NCBI GenBank assembly: GCA_963751455.1
Contig: CAVVUN010000001.1
Span: forward strand, 160,001-224,000
Origin: Nitrospirota bacterium
Lineage (GTDB): Bacteria; Nitrospirota; UBA9217
Direction of reading: 5' to 3'
Length of the DNA stretch: 64,000 nt
How positions within the stretch are numbered: position 1 is the stretch's first letter; the number at the start of each line of letters is the position of its first letter. Positions 23,834 through 40,442 of the stretch are shown here, in pieces. The position numbers and the translations under genes were made by a program. A model generated the notes under the pieces. That model did not search any database. It was not told the DNA's origin and was given only the letters and a program-made list of their open reading frames with translations.

Positions 23834-24290
23834 CTAGAGTGCGCCCTTCAGTGACCCTCTCGAGCGTTTTGTAACGCCCTTTACCAAATAGATCAACGGC
23901 GCAAATGGCGACATAATAAGTCCCCACCAGAAGAAGGTTTTCTTCAACATTCGCTTCTTGTATTTATCGGCGAAGTTTTGTTCCGTCTTCTTTTTCACAC
24001 AGTGAGTAAAATATTGGCAATGGTGTCCTATCTCATGGTAAAGGACAGCAGCAAGCATGAACTTGGCAACAAAAGGTAAGAAAAATACAAACCGAGGCAC
24101 GCCGCTGTAAATCGTACCTACAGCAAGTTCAATTCTAGCCGGTTCACGCCCCTTCCGTGGCCAATAGAGCCCGCCCGCTTTTTGATTCTTCTTGTATGTC
24201 AGATGATCAACAAGAGTGATCGAATCTAATCCAACCAGATGCTCTTGAGGAACTTTAATCAATAGTTTCGAAATTAGCTTTTCAAAGGGA
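23834..24290 (-). CDS. Hypothetical protein with HExxH zinc-binding motif, probably 5'-truncated
   Basis: VLYHEIGHH…EQNFAD; predicted start lies inside the RAYT element. Confidence 0.55.
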
Positions 24291-24300
24291 AACCATAGGG

Positions 24301-25170
24301 TCAAGTCTTTCTCCGTGTATTTTCGCTTTCTCGGAGCCAACGGCTAATTGTGGAATAGTGTACCCCCACTTGGCGTGCAATCTCGCTCTGGCGGTAGCCA
24401 TGCTTTTCAACAGCTTCGCTCAATCTTTTGTACATCTTCTTCTGATCTCGCTCAATCCCCTCGGGGAACAGGACATGCAATTGCGGTCTCGTTGCGTACC
24501 GCTGGCTCCGGGGAATTTCTGGGATATCCTTGTGTTTTTTAAGGCGATCGGTAAGTTTCTCGACAAAGCTGTCCTCGCCCAACAGAGCCTGGCCCCGTAC
24601 CTCGGTCCAAATACTCTTTTGCCCGATGCCCCAGGAAACGAACTGGCGATACTCCTGCTCCGCTTTTGAACGTTTTCGGCTGAATTGTCCAAGCACCCAG
24701 TCAGTCGTCAGACTCGGATGCGGCTCGGTTTTTCCGGCCGTAGCCAGATAACTGGACCATTTCCATTCATCTGGTTTTTCCATCAACGTGGCGCGAACAG
24801 GGTTCAAAACGACGTACCGGCAGACTTCCAGGAGATGACTGTCTTTCTGGATCAGAATGGCTTTATACCTGCCCTGGAAGAGGTGGCCAATCTTCCCGTT
24901 CCTTCTGTTAAAGAGCTGAGTATACACACCGTTCAACTGTCGCATCCCGAGGGACAAGTTGCCCTCCGGCGTCTCGATCAGGAGGTGATAATGGTTCGTC
25001 ATCAGGCAATATGCATGGCATATCCAGTTGTATCGCTTATTTACGTGTTGCAGGGTGTTCAGGAAGTTCTCGCGGTCCTGGTCGTCCTTAAAGATGGGCT
25101 TTTTCCGATTGCCGCGCGAGGTGACGTGATAGACCGCTCCAGGATATTCTATTCTTAGGGGTCGTGCCAT
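24301..25170 (-). CDS. REP-associated tyrosine transposase-like (Y1 HUH) protein, copy 2
   Basis: MARPLRIEYPGAVYHVTSRGN, NHYH (HUH), RYVVLNPVRA (catalytic Tyr), C-terminal HTH. Confidence 0.9.
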   Translation of the reverse strand: MARPLRIEYPGAVYHVTSRGNRKKPIFKDDQDRENFLNTLQHVNKRYNWICHAYCLMTNHYHLLIETPEGNLSLGMRQLNGVYTQLFNRRNGKIGHLFQGRYKAILIQKDSHLLEVCRYVVLNPVRATLMEKPDEWKWSSYLATAGKTEPHPSLTTDWVLGQFSRKRSKAEQEYRQFVSWGIGQKSIWTEVRGQALLGEDSFVEKLTDRLKKHKDIPEIPRSQRYATRPQLHVLFPEGIERDQKKMYKRLSEAVEKHGYRQSEIARQVGVHYSTISRWLRESENTRRKT

Positions 25171-25202
25171 GCAGTTACCATAGCATAAGGGAAACCATAG
25201 GG

Positions 25203-26072
25203 TCAAGTCTTTCTCCGTGTATTTTCGCTTTCTCGGAGCCAACGGCTAATTGTGGAATAGTGTACCCCCACTTGGCGTGCAATCTCGCTCTGGCGGTAGC
25301 CATGCTTTTCAACAGCTTCGCTCAATCTTTTGTACATCTTCTTCTGATCTCGCTCAATCCCCTCGGGGAACAGGACATGCAATTGCGGTCTCGTTGCGTA
25401 CCGCTGGCTCCGGGGAATTTCTGGGATATCCTTGTGTTTTTTAAGGCGATCGGTAAGTTTCTCGACAAAGCTGTCCTCGCCCAACAGAGCCTGGCCCCGT
25501 ACCTCGGTCCAAATACTCTTTTGCCCGATGCCCCAGGAAACGAACTGGCGATACTCCTGCTCCGCTTTTGAACGTTTTCGGCTGAATTGTCCAAGCACCC
25601 AGTCAGTCGTCAGACTCGGATGCGGCTCGGTTTTTCCGGCCGTAGCCAGATAACTGGACCATTTCCATTCATCTGGTTTTTCCATCAACGTGGCGCGAAC
25701 AGGGTTCAAAACGACGTACCGGCAGACTTCCAGGAGATGACTGTCTTTCTGGATCAGAATGGCTTTATACCTGCCCTGGAAGAGGTGGCCAATCTTCCCG
25801 TTCCTTCTGTTAAAGAGCTGAGTATACACACCGTTCAACTGTCGCATCCCGAGGGACAAGTTGCCCTCCGGCGTCTCGATCAGGAGGTGATAATGGTTCG
25901 TCATCAGGCAATATGCATGGCATATCCAGTTGTATCGCTTATTTACGTGTTGCAGGGTGTTCAGGAAGTTCTCGCGGTCCTGGTCGTCCTTAAAGATGGG
26001 CTTTTTCCGATTGCCGCGCGAGGTGACGTGATAGACCGCTCCAGGATATTCTATTCTTAGGGGTCGTGCCAT
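25203..26072 (-). CDS. REP-associated tyrosine transposase-like (Y1 HUH) protein, copy 1
   Basis: Identical 289-aa protein with the same motifs. Confidence 0.9.
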   Translation of the reverse strand: MARPLRIEYPGAVYHVTSRGNRKKPIFKDDQDRENFLNTLQHVNKRYNWICHAYCLMTNHYHLLIETPEGNLSLGMRQLNGVYTQLFNRRNGKIGHLFQGRYKAILIQKDSHLLEVCRYVVLNPVRATLMEKPDEWKWSSYLATAGKTEPHPSLTTDWVLGQFSRKRSKAEQEYRQFVSWGIGQKSIWTEVRGQALLGEDSFVEKLTDRLKKHKDIPEIPRSQRYATRPQLHVLFPEGIERDQKKMYKRLSEAVEKHGYRQSEIARQVGVHYSTISRWLRESENTRRKT

Positions 26073-26149
26073 GCAGTTACCATAGCATAATAAAATGTGA
26101 ATTGCAATAAGAAAGACTTGACCCTAAAAGGGTTCTGATCATATATAAA

Positions 26150-27667
26150 CCTTAACGTTGCATAAAAAATCGCTATGCGGCCCGTTGCAATCGGTCGAGA
26201 TAATGCAACAACCCCTTTTTGACTCGTGGATTGGCGTTCATTGTCAGAGTTAGCTTGCCGCCGGGCTGTGTCAGGCGGCCGGCACGCTGTATAAGTGTTC
26301 TTCGCAGGGTATTGGGCTCCGTGAACTCCCAAAGAGCGGCCCGTTTTTCGGTGGTGCCCCGGTCGGGTTCATGCGCGACCATGTGAAGTTCCTTCAGGAG
26401 ATTGTGCGAGATGATCGCCGACATCATGTATAGCTGATTTCCGTGCAATCTTCTCACAGCCACGTAATCCATATTGCACTGGGACTTTAGCTCTCCAAGG
26501 ATGTTTTCCTGAGAACCGCGGCCCTGATGGAAGTTCAGGACTTTCTTCACCGTCGTTGTTTTGTTTGTAACGATCACCTTGAAGTCAAACCCGTATTCGT
26601 GCGGCGTGAACATATCAAGCTGCACCGGCTCTTTTGACTGCTTTTTGGCTTTTTGACGAATAAAAAGAAAGCGGAACCGGCTGTCCCAGCTTTTCGGCTT
26701 CCAGGGTGTGTCGAAATAGGAAACAACGGAATCGTAACGCCTCCAGCGTTTTTTGGCTTCGATCATGTGTTTGAGTTCGGAGAACCGCTCAAAGGGGACC
26801 GAGATGGTGAACTCAATTCCGTCGCGCTCCAGCGCGCCGACGATTTCATCGCTGAAGAAAGCGCTGTCCATGCGCACTTCGATGACGATATCCGAACAGG
26901 TTGCACGCACCTGTTCGATGCACGCAAGGATGAACGCCCGGGCGCCGTTGGAATCATGTACGTTACCCGAACGGGGCAGGACGTCAAGGACCATGCCCAA
27001 CTGAGCGATCATGCAGAAAAGCGGATAATAGCTTCTCTGCCCTTTTTTCTTTTTGTTGAAGCCTACGGCGGCACCCTCAGCCCATCGGGAGGTCGAGAGC
27101 ACAGAGCCGTCGAAATCAAGCGTCACGCGACGAAGCTTCAAACCCTGTATGCGGGAGAGCGACATTTCCCGGCAGAACCGACGAAGATTCAAAATGTCCT
27201 TTGCGTCGACCGTCATCAATGCCCGGCTGATCGTGGAAACGTCCGGCATTTTTCGGAGGCCCAGAAGACGAAGCGCCATAAGGTCGTCCTGATAGTATTC
27301 GATGTCGCGGAGTTTCCGATAACCCAGCATCAGATGCACGATCAGCACGAGCGTAATGACGTGATTGCCGAAGATGGCGCTCGACGGTAGATGATCAAAG
27401 CAGCTTTTCAAGCGGGCTTTCAGATTCAGCTTCGTGAAGAATGCCTGAATGATAGCAAGGCCCGCGTAGGAAGTGAGCTGTTGATCCTCGAACTTCAGTT
27501 CCGGTATTTTGTGAACGCGGCTTAGAACCTGTGCTTTACTGGACTTCACTTTCAGTGGCCTCCTGCTTGAGTGAAATAATGATATCGCAGGAGCACTATA
27601 TCCAATAATGAAGCCTGTTTCCAGAGGTTTCTGCATATTTTCAAGAAATGTTTATGCAACTACAAGG
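26150..27667 (-). mobile_element. IS1380-family insertion sequence (~1518 bp)
   Basis: Terminal IRs CCTTAACGTTGCATAAA / CCTTGTAGTTGCATAAA enclosing a single transposase. Confidence 0.85.
26173..27549 (-). CDS. IS1380-family DDE transposase
   Basis: LTSYAGL, TLDFDGSV, YYPL, VRMDSAFF, RGSQENILGELK; GTG start at 27549 after GGAGG. Confidence 0.88.
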   Translation of the reverse strand: MKSSKAQVLSRVHKIPELKFEDQQLTSYAGLAIIQAFFTKLNLKARLKSCFDHLPSSAIFGNHVITLVLIVHLMLGYRKLRDIEYYQDDLMALRLLGLRKMPDVSTISRALMTVDAKDILNLRRFCREMSLSRIQGLKLRRVTLDFDGSVLSTSRWAEGAAVGFNKKKKGQRSYYPLFCMIAQLGMVLDVLPRSGNVHDSNGARAFILACIEQVRATCSDIVIEVRMDSAFFSDEIVGALERDGIEFTISVPFERFSELKHMIEAKKRWRRYDSVVSYFDTPWKPKSWDSRFRFLFIRQKAKKQSKEPVQLDMFTPHEYGFDFKVIVTNKTTTVKKVLNFHQGRGSQENILGELKSQCNMDYVAVRRLHGNQLYMMSAIISHNLLKELHMVAHEPDRGTTEKRAALWEFTEPNTLRRTLIQRAGRLTQPGGKLTLTMNANPRVKKGLLHYLDRLQRAA

Positions 27668-30050
27668 TTAATTCTCCGTAGGCGTTATAAATGAAAGTGG
27701 TTATCCCCGATTGCGGGTCCGTGATTATTTTCAGGTTACTCTTCGTGTCATACTCTAAAACGGACGCCATGTTTGCCGGGTCCGTCAGCCGGGTAAGATT
27801 GTCGTTGTTGTCATACGTCAAGAGGTGAATGTTTCCTAGAGGATCGGTTGTGCTGGTTATGTTACCCCGTGCGTCATATGTCAATGTCGTACTGTTACCA
27901 TTCGGATCCGTGATCCGGTTTATGTTGCCCTGTGCATCAAGCCCTCTGGACCATGTGTGACCTAACGGATCTATGATTTCCGTAATTTCTGCATACGGCT
28001 CCAGTTCATAGTAATACCATGTATTGCCGTTAGCGTCTTTTTTAATTACGTATTCACCCGGCGCTGAGTAGTCCGTCTTGTTTCCGAGAGGATCAATGAT
28101 CGAGCCCACCACGTAACCTATGTCCGCATCGTAATACACGTTGTTGATAGTCGTGGTCCCCTTTGTAGTTATGATGGAGCTCATGTAGCTGTACGTGTTG
28201 TAGGCGTATACCGCTTCATTTCCGGCCATATCCACGGAACGAATGAGGTTATTATTGGCGTCGTAATAGAAAAAAGCCTGTCTGTTTAAAGGGTCTGCTA
28301 TGGATGAAACCTTGCCGTTGGCCCCGTATGAAAAGGTTATTTGCCTTCCGGCCGCGCTTGTAACGGAGATAAGTCTGTTATTACCGTCATATTGAATCGT
28401 CACCAAATTGCTGTTAGCGTCCGTGATGCTACCAAGCCTTCCGGTTGCATCGAAATGCTGAGTAAGCTTCGTCTTTTTGATCTTCAGGCTGAAGGTCCCG
28501 TCCGGGTTTTTAATAAGGTTATCGTATACCCATCTCGGAGCAGTATAGATGCCGCCACCCGCAGGCGGAAAATTATCGACCTTGCCTGATCCCCGCTTTA
28601 TATCAACGTCGCCGCCTGGATTTTCAGTCAGCCTGGTCTCGTAGTTCGAAAACCAGCTTCTCCCGAAAATCCCCTCGCCCGGATCGTCCGCATTATACGT
28701 CCTTTTAACAAATACACCGGGCCCCCTGCCCCGAAGCACCACGTCTGTATCCAGTACGAGGTAATTTAAGTTAGAAAGGTTTACCTTCATACTGGGCATA
28801 CCGGGACTGCTGCATCCGCCGATGTCAGAGGGTTCGTCATATATGACAGGAGGATTGTCTTCGGCGTCTCCGGCATTGGTGCCGTGAAGATGATGACCTC
28901 CCCTTATCCCTTCCATCTGATTGATACTTAATTTATAAGATGAATAATTACTGTGCTCCTTATCAGGGAATACAAGGGCGGTCCCGCTCCATCTGTTCTT
29001 AAATTCTGCGGTCGTTAACGTTATATACCCTTTGTCCGGGTCGATGATGGAAACCTTTTCTTCCTGAAGATCTGTGACGGTAACAAAATGATTGATCTTC
29101 AAATGAGCGATCCACGGCGCTTTGATCAACTCCTTTGCTTCACCGAAACTTAATTTGGCGCCTATTGCTTCTACCCCGATTTCCCGTGAAGCTTTTTCCA
29201 AATCTTTCAAAGACAATATCAGGCCGTCTTTTGATAGCTTATTCTTTAGTGTCTTGCCTTTTATCTTCAAAACGTCCGCGAGCGCCTTTGAACCGCATGA
29301 TAAGGACGCTGTATTCTTAGCATGCTTGGCTGTGCGATTGATGATTTTAAGAAGGTACGTGGCCTCTTTGATAATGTTCCAGTCCTTGCTTTCGCGAAGC
29401 GCCTCTTTAAGCTCGCTGATTGAATTCTCGTAATCCCCGTTAAGAAAATGGAGCCTCGATAGTTTCAGTGCGGCTTGGTGGGCTACACGGGATTTGGGCG
29501 CAACTCTTTTTGCATTTACGAACGCCTTGACTGCCTCCTGGAAATCGCCCTCCTCATAGTATTCCCCCAATCTGAAATGGGATAATGCGGCTTCGGGCAG
29601 ATCGGGGAAACTCTCGGTTATTATCCTGTGTTTTGCGGCAACTTTATCCCATCTGCGGCCTTTCCAGTCTTCCTCCGCTTTATCGCTGATTTCCTTTATC
29701 GTCTTCGGTTCAATCGCGTTGAACGGGGAGCCGGCTTTTGCAGTATCCGGGGAAACAGATTCGATTACCGGAGCCGGGCTGAATATCGTAAATAAGAACG
29801 GGTCGGAAATTCCTCCGCCCGGCGAAGGATTTGTGACAGTCACCGGGACATCTCCGAGGGCGGCTAGCCAGTCTGTGGGAATCGCCGCCTGGATATTGTT
29901 ATTATCCTTGAAAAAGGTCTCTACGTCGCTCTTGTTGAACTGCGTCTGGCTCCCTCCCCTCTGTGTCAATATGACTGAGACACCTCCCCTATGGTAAATT
30001 AGAGTAGCGGGCGGGGGAGGAAATAACCTTATGATAGCAACAAAGATCAA
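27660..30050 (-). pseudogene. RHS/YD-repeat protein with TPR, C39 peptidase and DUF6531 domains; C-terminally truncated by IS1380, N-terminus chimeric
   Basis: TPRs, then SCG/NHFV/IIDP C39 motifs, RTYN..FGRSW (DUF6531), YD repeats (YDARGNITSTTDPLG); stop codon lies inside the IS inverted repeat; no RHS core or toxin tip. Confidence 0.8.
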
Positions 30051-30131
30051 AGCAACCCAGGGAAACGAAGGAGCCCGTAGCGGCGTTCTCTTTTAATCCT
30101 CTGATACATTCCGTTATTTCTGCGGACATTC

Positions 30132-30407
30132 TTAACAACAAATATATGCCACTTCCGAATTCTTGCCCGGAACTGCTTTGACGAAAGCTTTCTCGACTTT
30201 CTCCCCGTTCCAGTACAGCCCCGCCTGAAGAGTGTATGTCGTCGTGGCCGTAATCACGTTTGAGTACGCAGTCGAGAGATTGACACTTGCCGATGCCGTA
30301 GAGGACGCGTCCGTACCGCTCAGCGTGGAGTTTGCCGAACTAGCGGTCCCGTATTGTGGAATGGCAGATATGGTCACCGTGGTGCCGACGGGGATATTAG
30401 AGGCCGA
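30132..30407 (-). pseudogene. C-terminal fragment of a Ser/Thr-rich beta-sandwich surface protein
   Basis: SASNIPVGTTVTISAIPQYG...; no own start, fused in frame to IS3 fragment. Confidence 0.45.
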
Positions 30408-30641
30408 TACGTCGATGATAATTTCGGCCTGCCTGAGACGATTGGTAAGCCGTTCATTCTCTTTGCGGAGCTTTTCGTTCTCTACATGGAGAGGATGGCG
30501 GACTGATTCCTTACGCCCCCGCTTCTTGGGCGCGAGGCCGGATAGTACGCCGCGGTCGCGCTGACCTTGCCAGGTTTTGAGATTCGATGCATAGAGCCCT
30601 TCTCGGCGCAGGAGCGTACCAAGGCACCCCGGCTCATCGCA
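30408..30641 (-). mobile_element. IS3-family orfA fragment
   Basis: LGTLLRREGLYASNLKTW..GLAPKKRGRK..LRKENERL..AEIIIDV. Confidence 0.7.
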
Positions 30642-30963: not shown

Positions 30964-33900
30964 TTACAACGCTTCATCAGCTCCGATGTCCCATAGAGCT
31001 TGGCGGGCCTGCGCGTCAGTGTCATCAGAAAACAGACCGGAACCCGGGTCGCTTACGCCATGGTCCTTCGCCCCGGCATCGCTCGCAGCAAGGTGATAAT
31101 CTCCACTTGCCTCATTCACAAACGTAAACGTTTGCGATATCCGATCATGGGTATTTCCCCCACCAGTCACCGTATACCCCATTGAGGCGTTATTAGTTGC
31201 GTTATAATCCGTACCGGCATCAAACGTCCCTCCCGCAGGCTGATTACACAGATACATAAGATTGTTCTTAGCGATGACACTGCCGCCATTCTGGTACATC
31301 CCCTGATAACAGTTTACTAAAGTGTTGTTGAAGTAATAGGGTGTACCGATACTGGTGTATACACCGCCTATGAAAGTGCCGGCCCCTGACCGGTTCCAGT
31401 CAAGGAACAGGTTGTTAAATATCCTAACAACCGTGTTGGTTTCGGGGCCATTCGAGACCCCGTCTGAGTATGTGACCGTCCCGCTCAGAACTCCCTTAAT
31501 GATGCTATGAGATATCCGTATATCCCCGGCGCCAACGACGTTGGCTGTGCTGATTCCGTTCGCATTCGTTCCGGAAGAGGCGGTGACCTGTATTTGCAGT
31601 CCTTCGATGCGTACGTAATTGGCGGCGATATTAATCGCCTGTCCGGTTGTTTCAATCCGGTACTTACTGGTGTCCCATTTCCCCTGGTGGCGCTCACTTG
31701 CCGGCGTATAAATCCGGATATAATGGTCAGCATCCGTTGTGAATCCCGTTAGATTCACCGCGGTAGTATCCTGCATTGCATAACACTCAATGTAAAGAAT
31801 CCGATTGAGGGCGACCAGGTCAGCGGATTCCGCAGTGAGGGCTGCATTGAGCGAAGTATAATTACCGCCCGATGGTTTGACCGTGACCGTCCGGATAGTT
31901 GGCTGCATGCCGGAGGCTATATATTCATCTGCTCCGATGTCCCATACAGTCTGGCGCGCCTGCCCGTCGATATCATCGGAGTAAAGACCGGAACCCGGAT
32001 CGCTTACACCGTGATCTTTTGCCCCTGCATCACCGGCGGCAAGGTGATAATCTCCATTTGCCGCGTCAACAAATGTAAATGATTGAGATATTCGATCATG
32101 TACATTCCCGCTTCCCGTTACCGTATATCCCATTGTGCCATTGTTAGTTGCGTTATAATCCGTACTGGCATCGAAGACGCCTCCCGCAGGCTGATTACAC
32201 GAATACATAAGGTTGTTCCTGGCGATGACACTACCACCATCCCGGTATATCCCCTGATAACAGTTTATGAAAGTGTTGTTGAAGTAATAGGCCGTACCAA
32301 TGGAGGTGTATACACCGCCTATGAAGGTGCCGGCTCCTGACCTGTTCCAGTCAAGGAACAGGTTGTTAAATATCCTGACGACCGTGGCGGTGTCGGGCGC
32401 ATTCGAGATCCCATCTGTGTATGTAACCGTTCCGCTCAGAACTCCCTTGATGATGCAATGAGATATCCATATATCTCCAACACCAACGACATCCCAAATT
32501 TTTATTCCGTTCGCATTGTTTCCGGAAGAGGCGGTGACCTGTATCTGCAACCCTTCGATGCGAACGTAATTGGCGGCGATATTAATCGCCTGTCCGGTTG
32601 TTTCAATCCGGTACTTACTGGTGTCCCATTTCCCCTGGTGGCGTTCGCTTGCCGGCGTATAAATACGGATATAATGGTCCGCATCCGTGGTGAATCCAGT
32701 CAGGCTTACCGGCGCTGTATCCTGCATCGCGTAGCATTCAATGTAAAGAATCCGATTGAGGGCGACCAGGTCAGCGGATTCCGCAGTGAGGACTGCATTG
32801 AGCGAAGTATAATCACCGCCCGATGGTTTGACCGTGACCGTCCGGATAGTTGGCTGTATGCCGGAGGCTATAATAGTATCAGTGCATGCACTTGACAAAT
32901 TTCCTGCCAGGTCGCTGAACTTTGCGTACACGGTCTTTTCGCCGTCTCCCGGGGTTAACGTCCATACCTTTGTTGTGCCATAGGTCTCAGCGGCTGACCA
33001 TGCAGTATTGTCATTACTAAGCTGCATCTGGGAGCAGCCAATGTCATCACTACAGGAGAGGGTGAGAGTTACAACGCTGTTATTGGTAGAAGCTGCGCCT
33101 TCGTTGATTACGATCGTACCTGTCGGCAGCGTAGTATCGACGCCGACACTTACCAACTCACTTACCATGGATGAAGAAACGGCTGAGGGCTCATCTATAT
33201 ATGCACTTACCGGCCCGCTTTCGATTGAAGAGGAAACCTCCAGAGGCCTATCTATATAGGCGCTGACGGGTCCGGTCGCAAGAGAGGATGACACCAGCGT
33301 CGGCTGATCGATCAGTACACTTATCAGTCCGGCATTATTCATTATTGCCTCGCTCGGTTCGGGACTGAAGGGCTGCGTAACGAATATTACAGACCTGATG
33401 TTCAACGATTCTATGGTTGCTACACCTTCAGCGAGAGCATTTACATTGAACGAAGTCTCTCCACTTAAAGGTATCTGAATTCCTGACGGTACGGAAACAA
33501 TCGATGGATTATCGTTATTCAAGGAAAGTGTAAGGCTTTTGCCGATTAATGGATCTGTACCGGCAGTAATCGAACTGGTACTGCCCGGCGTCAATGCGAA
33601 CTGTCCGGGACTAAAAATGAGCTTTGCCACAAAAATAGAAATACTGCTGGAACCATAAAGATTGCTGCAAGTTATATTTGCTGGCCCTGTCGAAGCACCT
33701 ATAGGCGCGGTAATTTCAACTTTTATTTGCTCATCGCTGTACACTTCCAGAACCTTGATAATAAGGGCCGCATTATCAGATGTTACTCGATTCAGCGTCA
33801 GGAGATTTTGTCCGGAAATGGTAGTGATAACGCTTGAACCAATGAATAAGTAATCCGGATTAATGCTTTCAAGCAGGGGCGGATTGGGGCTGGTTGTATC

Positions 33901-34095
33901 GGTGACTGTAGATAAAAGATTGCCCACCTTATCATATTTGTATAACTGGCCGTCACTGCCGCTTACGACCCGCGTAAGGCGCCCAACATTATCATAAAAA
34001 TAATGTAGTTCATCAGCCGAAGCTGAAGAAAATACGGCAAGGCAGATAATAATCGTCACAGTTGTAAACAGAGATGCTTTTAATGCTCTCCTCAT
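30964..34095 (-). CDS. Large secreted protein: YD-repeat pair, IPT/Ig-like domains, two tandem beta-helix-like domains
   Basis: Signal peptide; YFYDNVGRLTRV..YKYDKVGNLL; duplicated 317-aa module ending WDIGADE. Confidence 0.8.
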   Translation of the reverse strand: MRRALKASLFTTVTIIICLAVFSSASADELHYFYDNVGRLTRVVSGSDGQLYKYDKVGNLLSTVTDTTSPNPPLLESINPDYLFIGSSVITTISGQNLLTLNRVTSDNAALIIKVLEVYSDEQIKVEITAPIGASTGPANITCSNLYGSSSISIFVAKLIFSPGQFALTPGSTSSITAGTDPLIGKSLTLSLNNDNPSIVSVPSGIQIPLSGETSFNVNALAEGVATIESLNIRSVIFVTQPFSPEPSEAIMNNAGLISVLIDQPTLVSSSLATGPVSAYIDRPLEVSSSIESGPVSAYIDEPSAVSSSMVSELVSVGVDTTLPTGTIVINEGAASTNNSVVTLTLSCSDDIGCSQMQLSNDNTAWSAAETYGTTKVWTLTPGDGEKTVYAKFSDLAGNLSSACTDTIIASGIQPTIRTVTVKPSGGDYTSLNAVLTAESADLVALNRILYIECYAMQDTAPVSLTGFTTDADHYIRIYTPASERHQGKWDTSKYRIETTGQAINIAANYVRIEGLQIQVTASSGNNANGIKIWDVVGVGDIWISHCIIKGVLSGTVTYTDGISNAPDTATVVRIFNNLFLDWNRSGAGTFIGGVYTSIGTAYYFNNTFINCYQGIYRDGGSVIARNNLMYSCNQPAGGVFDASTDYNATNNGTMGYTVTGSGNVHDRISQSFTFVDAANGDYHLAAGDAGAKDHGVSDPGSGLYSDDIDGQARQTVWDIGADEYIASGMQPTIRTVTVKPSGGNYTSLNAALTAESADLVALNRILYIECYAMQDTTAVNLTGFTTDADHYIRIYTPASERHQGKWDTSKYRIETTGQAINIAANYVRIEGLQIQVTASSGTNANGISTANVVGAGDIRISHSIIKGVLSGTVTYSDGVSNGPETNTVVRIFNNLFLDWNRSGAGTFIGGVYTSIGTPYYFNNTLVNCYQGMYQNGGSVIAKNNLMYLCNQPAGGTFDAGTDYNATNNASMGYTVTGGGNTHDRISQTFTFVNEASGDYHLAASDAGAKDHGVSDPGSGLFSDDTDAQARQALWDIGADEAL
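30970..32870. repeat. Diverged internal tandem duplication, period 951 bp
   Basis: cggaggcta at 31911 and 32862; long near-identical stretches between the copies. Confidence 0.9.
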
Positions 34096-34403
34096 GGACC
34101 CTCCCTGCCCGCTGCCCTGCAATAATGCGCTTGACGCAATGGCTTCGCTTTATGCAAAAAAGTAATTCAGCAAACTGGCTAGCCAGTGTTGAAAGCAAGT
34201 GAGACCAAGGAAGGGCACTCACATAGCAAATAAGGCGAATGCTTACAGAAAGAAGGATTTTTTAGCAGAAAATGATTTTTTTATTCGTATTTGAATTATA
34301 CTTTGATACTTACTAAAAAAGTACCTCGAAAGGGTGGGATGTCAAGAAAACTAAGGTATGATTTTTATACTAAAGGAATAAATAAGAGTCTACCGGGCGC
34401 ACC

Positions 34404-34458: not shown

Positions 34459-35895
34459 TTAGATCGTCTTTGACGCCTCGCTTGAATAGCTGCTTTCCAG
34501 TCCGGACACGTCCACGGTAGTCACGACAAAATAATAGGTCCCCGCCGAGAGATTCAGGCTTTTTGTAATCGTGTTCGTTCCCGGATTGGCGACATTCACA
34601 ACAGTATATGTCTGGTTCGTGGCCGTTCTATAATATAGTTTATACTGCGAGACATCGGATGCAGCGTTCAGAGCAGACCCGTCGGTACGTGTAGTAGGCG
34701 CGTCCCAGGTGAGCGTTGCAACGGCTCCCCCCGTAACAGTCAGTGCTGCCGTCGCCGTAACACTTCCCATTGTCGATGTGATAACGGTCGTCCCCGATGC
34801 GACCCCGGTGGCAAGGCCCCTCGAACCGTCCGCATTGCTGATGCTTGCTACAGCAGTAGCAGATGATATCCACGTTACAGCCGTCGTAAGGTCTTGTTTC
34901 GAGTTGTCCGAGAAGGTGCCGGTCGCGGAAAATTGCTGCGAAGTTCCACTGGCTATGGTGGCTGCAGCCGGCACAACTGTGAGAGATACGAGCACCGCCG
35001 GAGTTATTGTCAAGGCACTCGTACCGCTTATGCTTCCTGACGTTGCCCTGATCGTTACGGAACCGGCGCCTACCCCGCTTGCCAGACCGGTGCTGCTGAT
35101 AGTTGCCCGCGTGGCATCCGAGGAGCTCCAGGCAACTGTCTTCGTCACATCTTGAGAGGTATTATCCGAGAATTTTGCCATGGCTGCAAATTGCTGGGTA
35201 GTACCTTTGGCGATGCTGGCTGTGGCCGGCGTCACTGAAATTGATGCAAGTGCAGCTGCTGTAACAGTCAATGCCGCCGATCCGCTTATGCTTCCCAATG
35301 TTGCCCTGATCGTTGCCGAACCAGCGTTTTCTCCCTTTGCCAATCCGGTCGCACTTATTGTTGCTCTGGTCGTATCCGAGGAACTCCAAACTACGGACGA
35401 CGTCACATCCTGGCTTGTGCCATCCGAGAGCGCTCCTGTCGCAATAAACTGCTGCGTGGTCCCTTTGGCGATGCTCGCAGCGGCGGGCGATACCTGTACC
35501 GATATGACTGTTGCCGGCGTTACCGTCACCACACTCGACCCGCTGACGCTTCCCAATGCTGCTGTAATTGTTACCGAACCTGATCCGATCCCGTCTGCCA
35601 GACCTGTGCCGCTGATTGTTGCAAGCGTCGTATCCGATGAACTCCAGGTAACGGACGAGGTGACATTTGCCGTCTTGTTGTTCATGTAGAGGGCCGTTGC
35701 CGTGAACTGCTGAGAGGTGCCGCGCGCTATGACCGGATCCACAGGATCCACTGTAATCGACACAAGCCGAGGTTTATTCTCTTCCTCAGTGCTTGCCAAT
35801 GTTCCCTCCGGGTCTCCGCTTCCGCATGCCGAGATACTTGCTGCCATCAGCGATGCCAAAAAAATCAAGCCAACCTTTTTACTCCACATACTCAT
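34459..35895 (-). CDS. Lipoprotein with four Big_2 Ig-like domains and C-terminal fibronectin type III-like domain
   Basis: Lipobox ISAC; 4x IAKGTTQQF..VTWSSSD; ATLTWDAP..GTYYFVVT..ESSYS. Confidence 0.88.
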   Translation of the reverse strand: MSMWSKKVGLIFLASLMAASISACGSGDPEGTLASTEEENKPRLVSITVDPVDPVIARGTSQQFTATALYMNNKTANVTSSVTWSSSDTTLATISGTGLADGIGSGSVTITAALGSVSGSSVVTVTPATVISVQVSPAAASIAKGTTQQFIATGALSDGTSQDVTSSVVWSSSDTTRATISATGLAKGENAGSATIRATLGSISGSAALTVTAAALASISVTPATASIAKGTTQQFAAMAKFSDNTSQDVTKTVAWSSSDATRATISSTGLASGVGAGSVTIRATSGSISGTSALTITPAVLVSLTVVPAAATIASGTSQQFSATGTFSDNSKQDLTTAVTWISSATAVASISNADGSRGLATGVASGTTVITSTMGSVTATAALTVTGGAVATLTWDAPTTRTDGSALNAASDVSQYKLYYRTATNQTYTVVNVANPGTNTITKSLNLSAGTYYFVVTTVDVSGLESSYSSEASKTI

Positions 35896-36044
35896 GTTAC
35901 CCTCCCCTTTTGGACCGAATTAAACAACATAGAGCATCATTCCCCGCAGCGGCGAATGAAACGTAGTAAACGAAGTCATCAGTAATTCTGTACAGCTTGG
36001 AGAAATAACGACTATAGTGTGATAAACCTCGCGCGCATAATAAT

Positions 36045-36062
36045 CTGTGACCAAAGTCACAG
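36045..36062. promoter_or_regulatory. CRP/FNR-family binding site
   Basis: cTGTGA-ccaaag-TCACAg, matches TGTGA-N6-TCACA, between divergent surface-protein genes. Confidence 0.65.
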
Positions 36063-36566
36063 TTTATCCTGCTCCCAATGTTCTTTCACGGGTGAGTGGA
36101 AGAGGGCTAATTTTCGATACAAATTGTTCAAGGAGAGTTATTGCAATTTGAGCCTCGAAGGATGCCTATTGCCAGGCCACTTATGCAGTTTATTGAGCGG
36201 TAGGGATTGCCAAATTAACGATGGATTGTTTCCGTCCTGTACAACGGCCCCTGACTATGTATCTTTTGGGCACAGGGATTTTAGAAATTGAGTTCTCATC
36301 GCGTTTCAGTCTGCACTCCATGTTTGTTCATAGTTTTTGGAATTCCTCTAAAATTCATTAAACGTCATTAAACTCAGGCTTTATTTCTTAAAACGTGTCC
36401 TCTTAATTGAGGATTTTTGAGTCGCTGCCGAAATGTTCACACTTTTAATTCGGTCCGAAAAGACGTGAGAACCAGGCATTCTCGTTTAGCATAAATCTTG
36501 CTTTAGCCCGTATTGATAAACGTCAGTCCCGGGTCTTTTTTCAACTGCATTGAAAAGGAGGTTCAC

Positions 36567-38543
36567 ATGGCACAAATGAAGAATTTTATTGTTCTCCTTA
36601 TTGTTCTTTTATTTATTACGGTTTTTGTTTCATGTGGTCACAGAAGAAAGCATGGGGGCGCCGGTAACCCGCAGTCCCCGGATGAACAAATTGTAGCGGT
36701 GATACCTTCTCTTCCGCCGTCTTTGCAGAGTGCCGGGGGCAATGGATCGACCGGGACTGGAGGAAACGGCCCGTCCGTATTCATCGCAGCCACGGGCAAG
36801 ATCAATATCATGAAAAACGGAACGGTGGATGCCGGCTTCATTCTGCCCACTACCCGTAATTTCGGAGAAAACCATGTCGTTCTCTCCGCCGAAACGCATG
36901 AGGTACAGCTGAATACGGATAGTATTCCCGGCGGATTGTATATGAAAACCGGGTCAGGCCTGCTGTATCTCGGCAACGGAAACAACGTGCTGGATGAAAC
37001 TTCGATCACGGGCCTCACGGTTCCCGCGGATGCCGTGCTTGTCCTTAATGGCAACGGGGCCCGGTCGTTCCATCACGAGGATTGGACCAATTATGGAGCG
37101 CTCGATCTGGTAAATGATGTCTTGATTGAAGGCAAGATCATCAGCTCTCCCTCTCTTTCAAAAGGCATTGCAATTACTGCGAATCGCATAGAAATAGCGG
37201 AAGGCGGGATAATATCCGCGTCAAGCGTAACAGCGGATGTCCCGGCAAGGGAGATACACCTCACGGCTCAAACGGGCAGAAAGATCGTGAACCGCGGGTT
37301 GATTGAAGCCAGGGGCATGGGTACCGGGAACGGCGGTAATATTTTTTTGAACGCTGACGAACTCGCGAGCAACACCGGCATCATCGACACAAGCGGCGGG
37401 GACACGGATACCGGCGCAGGCGGCAATGGCGGCAACCTCGAGGTCAATGTGTATTACGGCAATTTCTATTCATCGGGAACTGTTCTATTGAACGGCGGTG
37501 CCGGCACGTTGAATGGCGGAAATGGGGGGCGGGCTTCAATAGTAACGCGCGGTATACCGGATTACAGCATAACCAATGTTGAGTTTCCCACTCACGGCGA
37601 CATAATAATCAGCGGCACCTGGGAAGCGAACGGCGGCAACTGCTCGAGCGGCAATGGCGGCAACAGGGGTTCACTCGTGTTCGTCACGAATGCAATGGGC
37701 AGCATTGTCGCAAACGCGGAGCTCTCCGCAAAGGGAGGCAACGGAACCGGGTCGCAGACAGCGTCAGGCGGCGGGGGCGCAGACCACGCGATCGTTTTCC
37801 AATCCTTGAATAAGTACCCGGGCGATGCCTCGGTTCCCGGAAAAATCCGGCTCACAGGCGCGTTCGATGTCAGGGGCGGAGACGGAGAGTTGAATGGAGG
37901 CAATGCCGGTCAGGTTCGGATAGAAGCGTTTGCGGGAAACAAGGACTATACGGGAACAGATGTTGAAGTTATCCTTCCCGACGTTGTCCTGAACGGCGGA
38001 AACGGCGCCTCAAAAGGCGGGGACTCAGGCCGAATCGAAGCGTATACGCTTGTTCCTCAGGACGGTAGCGCGAATTCAGTCCAGAGCTACGCCAACACAA
38101 ATGCTGTGCCGGCAGGTCCGATCGTAAACGAGGCAGCCATCCAGGCAAAAGGCGGTTCGGCCACAAGCACATCCGGCGTCGGTGGTGCGGGAGGCGTCGT
38201 GGTCTTCCAGACTGATGATATTTCTCTGTACAACGGTCCCTCGTTCAGTTCCGTATCAACCACAATCACCAATTCCGGGAACATGGACTGCACCGGCGGC
38301 AACGGTGAACGCGGCGGTGACGCGAAAAGCGTAACAATGACTGCAGCGACCGTTTCAAATACAGGCGATATCGTCTGCAATGGAGGCGCGGGAACTATAA
38401 CCGGGGGCAACGGTGGCGCCGTCACCGTGACTTCGACGCAGGGCACATCTGCTTATACAGGCATTGTTCAGACTTCAGGCGGCACGGGATCATCTCCCGG
38501 CAACAACGGGACACAGACAGTGGATGGTGTAGTCGTTCCTTAA
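36567..38543 (+). CDS. Glycine-rich beta-helical lipoprotein (adhesin-like)
   Basis: AAGGAGG RBS; lipobox FVSC; repeated xNGGxG..GGNGGxVxI coils. Confidence 0.75.
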   Translation: MAQMKNFIVLLIVLLFITVFVSCGHRRKHGGAGNPQSPDEQIVAVIPSLPPSLQSAGGNGSTGTGGNGPSVFIAATGKINIMKNGTVDAGFILPTTRNFGENHVVLSAETHEVQLNTDSIPGGLYMKTGSGLLYLGNGNNVLDETSITGLTVPADAVLVLNGNGARSFHHEDWTNYGALDLVNDVLIEGKIISSPSLSKGIAITANRIEIAEGGIISASSVTADVPAREIHLTAQTGRKIVNRGLIEARGMGTGNGGNIFLNADELASNTGIIDTSGGDTDTGAGGNGGNLEVNVYYGNFYSSGTVLLNGGAGTLNGGNGGRASIVTRGIPDYSITNVEFPTHGDIIISGTWEANGGNCSSGNGGNRGSLVFVTNAMGSIVANAELSAKGGNGTGSQTASGGGGADHAIVFQSLNKYPGDASVPGKIRLTGAFDVRGGDGELNGGNAGQVRIEAFAGNKDYTGTDVEVILPDVVLNGGNGASKGGDSGRIEAYTLVPQDGSANSVQSYANTNAVPAGPIVNEAAIQAKGGSATSTSGVGGAGGVVVFQTDDISLYNGPSFSSVSTTITNSGNMDCTGGNGERGGDAKSVTMTAATVSNTGDIVCNGGAGTITGGNGGAVTVTSTQGTSAYTGIVQTSGGTGSSPGNNGTQTVDGVVVP

Positions 38544-38583
38544 ATCGTCTTGAATAATCATTTCAATTTTCAGTAACCGCGAG

Positions 38584-38612
38584 GGGCAGGACAAATCCTG
38601 CCCTGTTTTTTT
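38584..38612 (+). terminator. Rho-independent terminator
   Basis: GGGCAGGA-caaa-TCCTGCCC followed by T tract. Confidence 0.85.
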
Positions 38613-38794
38613 ATTTGACGGGGAGAGGCCTCTCGTTCTGTTCAATAAAATCTTTTCTTTTTCCGCAAGTTGTGATTTGCATCACTGAAAAAGCAGGAGA
38701 TAAAGTTTAACAAGCAAGCAGTACTTCTGCGACTTTAGTTTATAAAACCAGCGCCCGGGCGGGTTTTCTCTCAGGAAGGACGAGGAGACAACTA

Positions 38795-39754
38795 ATGGAA
38801 AGAACATGGGAAGCACCAGATGTTGATCAATATTTTTATCCCCGCGGCATGAGGCGAATAACCAAAGGACTTCCGTTTGCTGATGAGAAAAACCCGGCAA
38901 TGGCATATACCCTTTCGCTGCTCATGTGGGGAGGAGGCCAGCAATACAGCGGTCAGCGAGTAAAAGGAGTTTTGTTCCGGGTATTCATGCTTGTTCTCAT
39001 GGCATTGATCGCGATCTCTTTCTTGTACCGAGGCGAGCTTCCGACTCTTCTCCAGATGTACGATATTTCTCATGCCGAAGCTTTTTTGTCGGCCGAACTG
39101 CTGTTTTTTTTCATACTGATCTTCTGGACTTGTAATGCGGGCAATGCCTACCATACGGCTGTAAAGGCGAGAAAGGTTCCCTTTCCCGGGATGCAAAGCC
39201 GCATTTGGCCGTTGCTCGGTTCTCTGCTCGTTCCCGGCTGGGGACAATTCTTAAATGGACAACCGCTGAAAGGAAGCATCTTTACGGGTTTTTCGGTGCT
39301 CGGCATTTTTTCACTGGTTTCGGTACCCGCTGTTCTCAGGTACTGGCCTTCGCTGGAAACATCCCAGGCCCGTTCTATCGTTGAAGCAATCTTCGCTGTT
39401 TCCGCTCTCTATGCTCCTCTCATCCCGGTAATATGGCTTTTGAGCGGATATGACGCACTGATTGTAAGCTTCAACGACGCGAAGAAAGAATCGATCGTCG
39501 ACAGGATACTGTTAGGCGTCACGCGTCTGCGAATGGACGGATGGTTCAGCAGCATATGGCCCCGGTTCAAAGCAGTCATCGCCTTTACACTGCTTGCCGC
39601 AGTTATTTCGTTCGTCCTAAACCGCTATAATCCGGTGACTTATTATGGTGCGCATCTGGCAGGCGTCCAGTTGTGGTTGCATCAGCAGGGAATGACGCTG
39701 GTGCCCGACCTCATCAGTGAACTGCTGGCCGGACCGGAATCGCTCGGAAATTGA
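38795..39754 (+). CDS. Integral membrane protein with two TM2/DUF5683-like repeats
   Basis: LSLLMWGGGQQYSGQRVKG and GSLLVPGWGQFLNGQPLKG. Confidence 0.7.
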   Translation: MERTWEAPDVDQYFYPRGMRRITKGLPFADEKNPAMAYTLSLLMWGGGQQYSGQRVKGVLFRVFMLVLMALIAISFLYRGELPTLLQMYDISHAEAFLSAELLFFFILIFWTCNAGNAYHTAVKARKVPFPGMQSRIWPLLGSLLVPGWGQFLNGQPLKGSIFTGFSVLGIFSLVSVPAVLRYWPSLETSQARSIVEAIFAVSALYAPLIPVIWLLSGYDALIVSFNDAKKESIVDRILLGVTRLRMDGWFSSIWPRFKAVIAFTLLAAVISFVLNRYNPVTYYGAHLAGVQLWLHQQGMTLVPDLISELLAGPESLGN

Positions 39755-39766
39755 CGTGATATTTAC

Positions 39767-39808
39767 AAAAAAAGAGCGGAGGCTGGAATGAGTTCGTCCT
39801 CCGCTCTC
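39767..39808 (-). terminator. Terminator hairpin between convergent genes
   Basis: AAAAAAAGAGCGGAGG...CCTCCGCTCT. Confidence 0.7.
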
Positions 39809-39827
39809 AGGTAGAGCTTGCAGCGCA

Positions 39828-40442
39828 TTAGTACCGGAAACCGAGATTCATCGTTGCGGTGTACCCATCCAGTCTAACAGTCAAGCCATCGTATTCCGGC
39901 TTCACCCTGCGATATCTTCCCTCGAATCCAACGTAAAAGCTGTCTGAAAAATTTATATTCAGTCCAACCCCCATATGCGGCCCATAGTCCACTTCCCTGA
40001 AACTGCGATCACTGCCGTTCGCGCTCTCAATTTCGAATCTCGTAAAATATGCTCCGATGCCGGCTTCAGCGTAGGGCTCTACAGGTCCGAGCGGCAAATA
40101 TAGTTTCGCGGACAGGAGCACCGGGATAGCATCAAGCCTTGTTCTACCCGCCCCTATGCCAGGGAACCGCCTGTTCTCAAAGTACCCGATGCCGAACTCC
40201 GTGCCGAATACGGGCACATAGTAATGGCCGAAGCCGATCTCTGCGTTCATTCCATTCCTTCTGTCAAAATCTGTTCCGCTGAATTCATCCATTCTGATTC
40301 TTTCACTGGGATAATAGTAGCCACCCTTAATCGCAGTATAGTCCGGCCGTTTCTGAGATGCGGGCTCAGCCTGTGACAGCCAGGGAGCCAGTACAATGAG
40401 AACGGCCGCTATAACCATGAGTAACATAACTGTTCTTTTCAT
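39828..40442 (-). CDS. Outer membrane beta-barrel protein (OmpA/OmpW-like, 8-stranded)
   Basis: Signal peptide; PYAEAGIG; terminal LGFRY. Confidence 0.8.
   Translation of the reverse strand: MKRTVMLLMVIAAVLIVLAPWLSQAEPASQKRPDYTAIKGGYYYPSERIRMDEFSGTDFDRRNGMNAEIGFGHYYVPVFGTEFGIGYFENRRFPGIGAGRTRLDAIPVLLSAKLYLPLGPVEPYAEAGIGAYFTRFEIESANGSDRSFREVDYGPHMGVGLNINFSDSFYVGFEGRYRRVKPEYDGLTVRLDGYTATMNLGFRY

Follow-up and report, generated by a model that had tools for sequence, protein, structure and literature searches.

Introduction

The closest described counterparts of the locus studied here fall into two groups: Rhs proteins, whose YD repeats form a cage, and C39 cysteine peptidases, which recognise double-glycine leaders. 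Solved Rhs effectors of type VI secretion systems (T6SS) are reported to sever their N-terminal part at the motif PVxxxxGE or one related to it, and Rhs1 itself is cut at 289/290 (PMC11461821, PMC8636562). The present locus bears on how Rhs toxins mature and open outside type VI secretion. Two Rhs families linked to gspG, in Ralstonia (56) and Xanthomonas (180), are described in the available text of bioRxiv 10.1101/2025.05.08.652813 as predicted substrates of type II secretion; the Ralstonia family was delineated there recently, without a processing mechanism. Bcn-A of X. perforans is presented as an Rhs bacteriocin that depends on type II secretion (PMC7259588).

Characterised C39 enzymes are described as cutting after Gly-Gly, Gly-Ala or Gly-Ser at positions −2/−1. 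In LahT, the leader helix spans positions −11 to −4, and the oxyanion Gln lies 4.3 Å away, with a His as a possible stand-in (PMC6363468). FapD is a C39 peptidase reported to be active in the periplasm (PMC5557850), and in the toxin StbD-CT a C39 domain is reported to cut itself in cis after Gly-Gly in a redox-dependent manner (bioRxiv 10.64898/2026.05.07.723447). Self-cleavage by an N-terminal C39 domain has also been suggested for giant proteins of Omnitrophota, in an account whose available text names no leader or site and has 0 occurrences of ‘double glycine’. Zhang 2012 treats Tox-PLC39 as a toxin domain associated with RHS repeats, and the accessible part of its Table 1 does not count C39 among the processing proteases.

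The window analysed here is a stretch of 64,000 nucleotides from a Nitrospirota bacterium (GCA_963751455.1, contig CAVVUN010000001.1, positions 160,001 to 224,000). A first-pass annotation made from its letters alone had proposed that one Rhs protein combines a C39 peptidase with a double-glycine leader of its own. Profile searches, alignments of relatives, comparison of loci and structure models were used to follow up this proposal.

Architecture of the Window ORF

The minus-strand ORF at 27660–30050 encodes 796 aa and is a truncated mosaic made of a start derived from an insertion sequence, a CoaZ/IPT-like domain, TPRs, a C39 domain, a leader, DUF6531 and a partial YD cage. Pfam matches follow the order proposed in the first-pass annotation, namely TPR, C39, linker, leader, DUF6531 and YD repeats. 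TPR models match at aa ~143–235, within a helical stack of aa ~115–246 (29313–29708, minus strand) that was delimited from Pfam and the structure model and is conserved in the family. The C39 assignment holds in the profile search: Peptidase_C39 (PF03412) covers aa 246–364 (28959–29315, minus strand) at E 1.7e-17, with 64 bits against a cut-off of 22, and alignment and fold match agree with it. Its triad consists of Cys252 (29295–29297), His321 (29088–29090) and Asp337 (29040–29042), and it is without the Gln at Cys−6.

The double-glycine leader extends from L374 to G385 (28896–28931, minus strand) and carries L−12, M−7, I−4, G−2 and G−1. Re-mapping returned exactly the bases first assigned to Cys, His, Asp and leader, and the aliphatic and Met residues pointed out at −12, −7 and −4 are borne out both in the window and as the pattern of the family. 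A linker between C39 and leader is present as proposed, its length being an 11-residue spacer from the C39 end (P362) to L374 and not the ~15 residues first estimated. The cut is predicted between 28896 and 28895. The segment behind the Gly-Gly (28797–28895, minus strand) begins with a His cluster, where most relatives have a Cys cluster, and is the counterpart of the seal in solved Rhs cages. The N-terminal plug, DUF6531 (28569–28781, minus strand; aa 424–494, E 3.2e-9 in Pfam), is without the PVxxxxGE self-cut motif according to a motif check. Seven RHS_repeat stretches were matched, and the YD repeats (27663–28436, minus strand) keep ~410 of ~865 cage residues, the DPxG core and the tail being gone. 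By the presence of a YD cage and an N-terminal plug in sequence, the family of the window protein is classed with the Rhs/YD polymorphic toxins.

The Window Copy as a Mosaic Cut by Insertion Sequences

This copy had been annotated as truncated, and its frame indeed passes at 27671 into a DDE transposase element present in multiple copies. The element (26148–27671, minus strand), which we take to be IS1380-like, has at least nine further near-identical copies in the genome. At the opposite end, the first codons of the ORF are supplied by the end of a multicopy insertion sequence (29955–30085, plus strand; 98–99% identity to C1:301008, C1:307898 and C15:758538), presumably IS3-like. With an insertion sequence breaking into it at either end, the window copy is non-functional, and it has no signal peptide.

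The CoaZ/IPT-like domain (ORF aa 37–109; 29724–29942, minus strand; NF058597 match at aa 33–89) has 45% identity to an RHS protein without C39 that is encoded elsewhere in the genome, C15:321404, and was not found in the 157 relatives described below or in the compared loci. The DNA upstream of the ORF is homologous to the same C15 operon. It includes a remnant of the second gene of a C15:318776–327442-type RHS operon (30141–30410, minus strand; 53% identity), located between insertion sequence fragments at 30409–30641 and 29955–30085, and a gene (30964–34122, minus strand) for a secreted multi-domain protein with one YD module (33889–34020) right after its signal peptide. The latter is a candidate partner of the cage and may be derived from the non-C39 operon. 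The missing remainder of the Rhs gene was sought in the source genome, where the best other RHS match reached 32% (~50% being expected), and in the 900-base flanks of nine other copies of the truncating element, which contain no more than a single YD motif; neither search recovered it. Since the window copy is a dead mosaic without a signal peptide, the mechanism is argued from intact relatives.

Catalytic Triad and Leader in Close Relatives

Searches with aa 110/115–500 as query yielded 7 proteins plus the best 150 of 991 (E ≤ 0.001), which amount to 157 distinct proteins including the query, 117 of them with a whole C39 domain. The triad is kept almost throughout these 117, with Cys in 116, His in 116 and Asp in 114 (replaced by Asn in two and Glu in one), while the oxyanion Gln at Cys−6 occurs in 18/116. 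In all 31 proteins scanned with Pfam, C39 stands before the cage.

An alignment built without reference to the motif, from which three truncated rows were dropped, shows GG in the leader columns of 101 of 114 relatives, followed by GK (3), GA (3), GR (2), GS (2) and GT (1), with two rows misaligned. A Gly-Gly ends 18–26 residues past the C39 domain in 100/114 relatives, compared with 6.1% of other nine-position windows in the same proteins; the motif that the first-pass annotation expected to be kept in C39 relatives is thus conserved, and a chance motif is ruled out. A stricter leader pattern, defined post hoc from the logo, is found in 56/114 relatives against a background of 0.08%. The distance from the C39 end is 18–26 residues in 109 of the 110 leaders that could be located. 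Among these 110, Leu occupies −12 in 75 and Glu occupies −8 in 58, position −7 is Met (40), Leu (33) or Ala (19), and position −4 is Ile (29), Val (20) or Leu (20). Aliphatic residues or Phe make up 79% at −12, 71% at −7 and 66% at −4, as opposed to 3–15% at −11 to −8, −6 and −5, and the leader positions that LahT and ComA are described as reading match those conserved here (PMC6363468). A Cys or His cluster after the Gly-Gly (68, 18 and 16 of 110) is clade-bound. A further pair of Cys residues within the cage occurs unevenly across the branches (8/10, 7/13, 17/54 and 0/2) and is therefore not connected here with that cluster.

Because these relatives were found with a query that contained the motif, and kin are not independent, a control with relatives lacking C39 matters: the leader pattern was present in 0/10 related Rhs proteins that have the same plug, other N-termini and no C39. 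P0156, the sole relative whose triad is dead, lacks the GG. As judged from these alignments, a protease and a matching leader in one chain is a trait of the family, and the original reading of the two as fused within a single Rhs chain is supported.

A Second Branch with Lys or Met before the Gly

A plasmid search returned weak full-length Ralstonia matches first, followed by Rhizobium and Nitrosospira. N-terminal queries from this second branch matched 689 and 1,029 clusters at E ≤ 1e-10, and its residue counts refer to the best 120 of each. The triad is complete in 119/119 (one of the 120 was dropped, its Cys motif not being found) and in 120/120 of those listed, so that the catalytic Cys is kept in 355/356 across both branches; Gln is not among the commonest residues at Cys−6. 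The leader has Val, Ala, Ile or Leu at −12, Glu at −8 (101/119 and 112/120), Ala at −7 (114/119 and 106/120) and Val or Ile at −4 (117/119 and 106/120). Gly at −2 is invariant in both sets (119/119 and 120/120), and position −1 is Lys in 108/119 of one and Met in 113/120 of the other, then followed by an invariant Gly.

As Lys or Met at −1 breaks the rule of Gly, Ala or Ser, the register or the specificity differs in this branch. Either a large P1 residue would be accepted, or the register would be shifted by one, or the leader would be bound without being cut. On sequence grounds, the second branch supports the coupling of enzyme and leader, yet no other result speaks as strongly against a plain Gly-Gly cut. 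The last of the three options can be extended to the whole family: the C39 domain could act as a tethered pro-peptide or chaperone clamp that holds the leader without cutting, its triad serving another substrate, such as the single-YD partner described below or a protein of the target cell. Lys, Met or Arg at −1, seen in the larger branch and in 5/114 close relatives, is in keeping with such a clamp, as are the mostly missing Gln at Cys−6 and the reported role of inactive C39-like domains as chaperones in type I secretion. Those chaperone domains, however, lose the Cys that is retained here almost without exception; moreover, the −2 Gly is near invariant, as a narrow active site requires, and with PVxxxxGE lost there would be no other evident N-terminal cut. 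We consider holding without cutting unlikely, and cleavage behind the leader is the preferred reading.

In the phylum of the source organism, the N-terminal module was matched in 3/401 genomes (E ≤ 1e-10), the source genome included; in a profile search of 40 relatives, none of the matches listed outside the source genome covers TPR-C39. No Xanthomonas name occurs among the best 120 of the 1,029 second-branch clusters. The best ESM Atlas cluster (0.83; 58 members) bears the automatic name C39/RHS/YD-shell, and an R. etli database entry, ‘Rhs repeat-associated core/peptidase C39-like domain-containing protein’, records the same co-occurrence of C39 and Rhs.

Structure Models

The model of TPR-C39-leader-plug (pLDDT 92.8, pTM 0.89) forms one compact unit. 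As the first-pass annotation anticipated for the leader, it contains an ordered helix in a confident model: residues 267–272 correspond to leader positions −10 to −5, and G276 to P1. LahT (6MPZ) is the best Foldseek match and also the best PDB match by sequence. Fold comparisons with LahT 6MPZ gave Z 15.8–17.8, the higher value at rmsd 1.8 with 122 aligned. From the helix, the confidence of the model and the spacing, we infer that the leader would be docked in the C39 groove, and the model may echo solved complexes of C39 with leaders.

The intact member at locus L012, modelled over aa 40–1200 (pLDDT 89.8, pTM 0.87), has the same leader helix and matches Rhs cages at Z 28–35. Two positions past the GG, its residue 286 is matched to residue 272 of Rhs1 (7PQ5), where the modelled part of the N-terminal plug starts. 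For this reason the predicted cut would remove TPR-C39 and leave seal and plug on the cage, the site being predicted in the model just ahead of the seal.

Cage, Tails and Immunity Genes

The N-terminal site of T6SS effectors, PVxxxxGE, occurs in 0/100 close relatives and in 0/239 second-branch proteins listed. At the C-terminal end, a DP.G site is present in 31 of the 36 proteins with a located core end, out of 76 long proteins, many of them incomplete; likewise, DPxG (the PxxxxDPxG aspartyl self-cut site) is found in 8/8 loci listed. The tails behind DPxG measure 73–192 aa, with one similar pair among 36. Pfam recognises a tail in 1/31 close full-length relatives (DUF4329) and in 0/10 locus tails; ten hand-picked tails of the second branch include HNH, GH-E, Tox-REase-7, NucA/NucB, Ntox37, lysozyme, PT-HINT and DUF4329. 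A small ORF of no recognised family lies directly behind the Rhs gene in L004, L018, L030, L032 and L033. No small immunity-like gene was found behind it in L003, L010, L012, L015 and L017, where the partner gene comes next instead. Since few tails have Pfam matches and five loci are without an immunity-like gene, the toxin role is putative in the branch of the window protein.

These same gaps, namely the many tails without a known toxin family and the several loci without an immunity-like gene, would fit a different role for the protease, in which the cage is a carrier and the cut frees TPR-C39 to act as the weapon itself, as a peptidase toxin of the StbD-CT or Tox-PLC39 kind. Known C39 toxins are reported to process themselves after Gly-Gly, and Zhang 2012 associates Tox-PLC39 with RHS repeats. 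On the other hand, TPR-C39 is N-terminal and conserved, while the DPxG tails are mutually unrelated and, in the hand-picked set of the second branch, include nucleases and a lysozyme. A C39 weapon is therefore quite improbable, and the domain is better read as the processing enzyme of the cage.

PAAR and VgrG families were absent from the 31 proteins scanned. The same 31 contain no ABC transporter domain, and the leader is internal; a PCAT substrate was rejected as the main reading on these two grounds.

Export and a Single-YD Partner Gene

Three features came to light beyond the scope of the first-pass annotation: export signals in intact members, the branch with Lys, Met or Arg at P1, and a partner gene whose product has one YD module. 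Signal peptides were judged by a rough hydrophobicity score: a hydrophobic 12-mer lies within the first 57 residues of 83/94 close and 212/240 second-branch proteins, compared with 34/1,737 inner windows, and this N-terminal stretch points to Sec export. The gene of the Ralstonia relative lies directly beside gspG and a type II cluster.

Export also bears on whether the leader might be cut in trans, by a sister molecule or a PCAT/FapD-like peptidase, with a role in export or in the maturation of an oligomer. Exporters are described as cutting all characterised double-glycine leaders in trans, and the source genome has a weak second C39-like match (C2:546161, 16.6 bits). Against this stand the near-constant distance between C39 and leader, the single compact unit of the model, the hydrophobic N-termini, which point to Sec export, and the ORFs of L003–L018, among which no C39-ABC exporter gene was seen by eye. 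Cleavage in trans is accordingly very improbable, and a cut within the same chain remains our preferred reading.

Wherever the flank could be read, in 9/9 distinct close loci, the next co-oriented gene encodes a secreted single-YD protein. Loci were scanned for with a single pattern of the His branch, so that 12 of them are biased to that branch. Contigs end before the partner position in L011, L013, L014 and L016. The single-YD gene was not found in L029, L030 and L033, and two Ralstonia loci and Nitrosospira lack a match, while two Rhizobium plasmids carry the partner as proteins of 94 and 107 residues. Similar genes near three non-C39 RHS genes of the source genome mean that the single-YD gene is not tied to C39. 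The YD module of ~40 residues is joined to unrelated domains of adhesion type. Constant in sequence, and shifting between start, middle and end of otherwise unrelated proteins, it resembles a tag that docks proteins onto the cage. More speculatively, the single-YD neighbour could dock on the cage and supply an exchangeable adhesin. This partner is a second, independent lead on how Rhs cages find their targets.

Proposed Mechanism

The evidence from relatives and models makes it fairly likely that the C39 domain binds the leader and cuts behind it, releasing the cage in place of the N-terminal Rhs self-cut. The protein would be exported by Sec and fold outside the cytoplasm, type II secretion following in some lineages. 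TPR-C39 would fold onto the N-terminal plug, the leader helix would bind the C39 groove, and the chain would be cut in cis behind position −1. Two cuts, the N-terminal one and that at DPxG, would give three pieces: TPR-C39 would be lost as a pro-domain, uncapping the N-terminal plug, and the tail released at DPxG would leave through the uncapped plug. Speculatively, the Cys or His residues clustered at the N-terminus that the cut would expose could control the catalytic Cys, as a switch that responds to redox state or metal. The cis geometry is without direct precedent, since in StbD the cut linker precedes the peptidase, whereas here it follows.

A broader reading is tentative and in our judgement rather doubtful: the family would represent a widespread class of Rhs proteins exported by Sec and type II secretion, in which a borrowed RiPP leader-peptidase pair serves as a triggerable N-terminal lock and the single-YD partner as a targeting arm in trans. 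Set out in full, and with the same reserve, it would be a contact-independent toxin system in two parts. One would be the cage, whose protease cap comes off when a Cys/His-based redox or metal switch is released and TPR-C39 cuts its own leader; the other would be the partner, with its exchangeable adhesion domains.

An enzyme, its catalytic Cys and the bond predicted to be cut can now be specified for a family with more than 1,000 sequence clusters, cultured strains being among its members. If the proposed mechanism is true, C39 would join the releasing peptidases of polymorphic toxins, the family would provide the first cis fusion of enzyme and helical leader in the literature searched, and C39 enzymes with Lys or Met at P1 would be suggested.

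Comparison with Known Systems

A literature search, covering mostly sources other than subscription journals, returned no description of the leader or of the TPR-C39-leader-Rhs arrangement, nor does the available text of a papain-family review describe the latter. The arrangement is real, conserved, widespread and apparently undescribed.

The family shares with the T6SS Rhs effectors (Rhs1 7PQ5, RhsA 7Q97, RhsP, Tse5 and Tse15) the YD cage, the seal, the Ig-like plug, DPxG, a variable tail and, presumably, processing by two cuts into three pieces. Unlike these effectors, it is without PAAR/VgrG and PVxxxxGE and has an N-terminal export signal, and it possesses a separate cysteine peptidase together with a RiPP-type leader that precedes the equivalent cut site by ~20 residues. 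Among exported Rhs proteins, RRhs F II (Ralstonia) and XRhs F VIII (Xanthomonas) have the gspG link and predicted type II secretion in common with the Ralstonia relative, which, adjoining gspG, is probably RRhs F II by this inferred match; the main text of bioRxiv 10.1101/2025.05.08.652813, as available, has 0 occurrences of ‘C39’, ‘TPR’ and ‘signal peptide’. Bacterial teneurin-like proteins (PMC13018210) are described with a signal peptide, adhesion domains, a YD shell and an N-terminal cut with a Cys that links the fragments, in a paper whose accessible text has 0 occurrences of ‘C39’.

With regard to the peptidase, FapD and FilB are likewise described as exported C39 peptidases without a transporter, and their NCBIfam models give weak matches here, far below cut-off; they stand alone and act in trans on fibre subunits (a target left unsettled in the available text of PMC5557850), whereas here the peptidase is fused. 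StbD-CT/Cpe1 (bioRxiv 10.64898/2026.05.07.723447) and Tox-PLC39 resemble the family in placing C39 in a polymorphic toxin with a Gly-Gly self-cut, which is predicted here. In StbD-CT, as far as its available description goes, C39 is the C-terminal toxin, the cut lies ahead of it and no helical leader is described; in the present family a conserved C39 stands on the N-terminal side, with the cut predicted after it. The PCAT/AMS domains (LahT 6MPZ, ComA and PCAT1) share the fold, the triad, the −12/−8/−7/−4/−2 leader pattern and the short helix. The family differs from them in having no ABC transporter, in joining enzyme and internal leader in one chain with a likely extracytoplasmic location, in the replacement of the oxyanion-Gln segment by TPRs, and in the Lys or Met at −1 of one branch.

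Neighboring Single-YD Gene

Next to the Rhs gene, in the window and at relative loci, lies a gene in the same orientation for a secreted protein with one YD module of about 40 aa, and this protein is a candidate partner of the cage. The gene was found in all nine distinct close loci (the window's Gly-Gly branch) with a readable flank and in two of the five second-branch loci. It occupies 30964-34122 in the window (YD module, 33889-34020), and, among the loci carrying relatives of the Rhs gene, 14052-17444 in L003, 14122-17064 in L004, 1-1902 in L007, 7980-8801 in L008, 13783-16050 in L010, 8189-10552 in L012, 13897-16494 in L015, 1-6818 in L017, 2801-6304 in L018, 4058-4342 in L031, and 5375-5698 in L032. 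The module may be N-terminal, central, or C-terminal, and it is fused to mutually unrelated adhesion-type domains, including PPC, BACON, PKD, TSP3, Ig, and beta-helix; on two Rhizobium plasmids, it stands nearly by itself in proteins of 94 and 107 aa. The window copy also contains a 949-base internal repeat (30973-31921 and 31924-32872, 86% identical) encoding a beta-helix-like unit.

Other RHS Genes and Mobile Elements

About ten further large RHS genes are present in the same genome. All of them lack a C39 domain, and in most the N-terminus is hydrophobic; they include those at 85759-95964 and 109160-120739 (contig C1), 371567-377986 (C2), 34469-40198 (C11), and 117918-124067, 321419-327442, 1096337-1107912, and 1230182-1236205 (C15). 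Similar single-YD genes lie near three of the genome's non-C39 RHS genes. One further RHS gene (C1, 114560-125912) is likewise split by the DDE element that truncates the window gene. A Y1 transposase gene in the window lies in an exact 904-base tandem duplication (24285-25188 and 25187-26090), which may be either genuine or an artefact of assembly.

Variation Around the Leader and the Cage

Immediately behind the leader Gly-Gly (window residues at 28872-28895), relatives carry Cys-Cys (68/110), x-Cys-x-Cys (18/110), or His-His (16/110). The type changes clade by clade, which suggests a putative metal or disulfide site beside the catalytic Cys. In the giant protein P0156 (6338 aa), the C39 is dead, with Asn/Leu/Asp at the triad positions, and is followed by a decayed leader-like stretch.

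The Ralstonia paralogues P0285-P0299 retain TPR-C39-leader and YD repeats but have a discoidin (F5/8) sugar-binding domain at the C-terminus; the DPxG self-cut site was absent from the last 300 residues in the three checked. Additional domains occur in P0002, P0003, P0004, P0018, and P0077; in P0017; in P0006; and in P0035. They are a GH2-like barrel or an SBBP propeller N-terminal to the TPRs, or a MAM-like or NHL domain within the cage, showing that the TPR-C39 cap and the cage both tolerate passenger modules.
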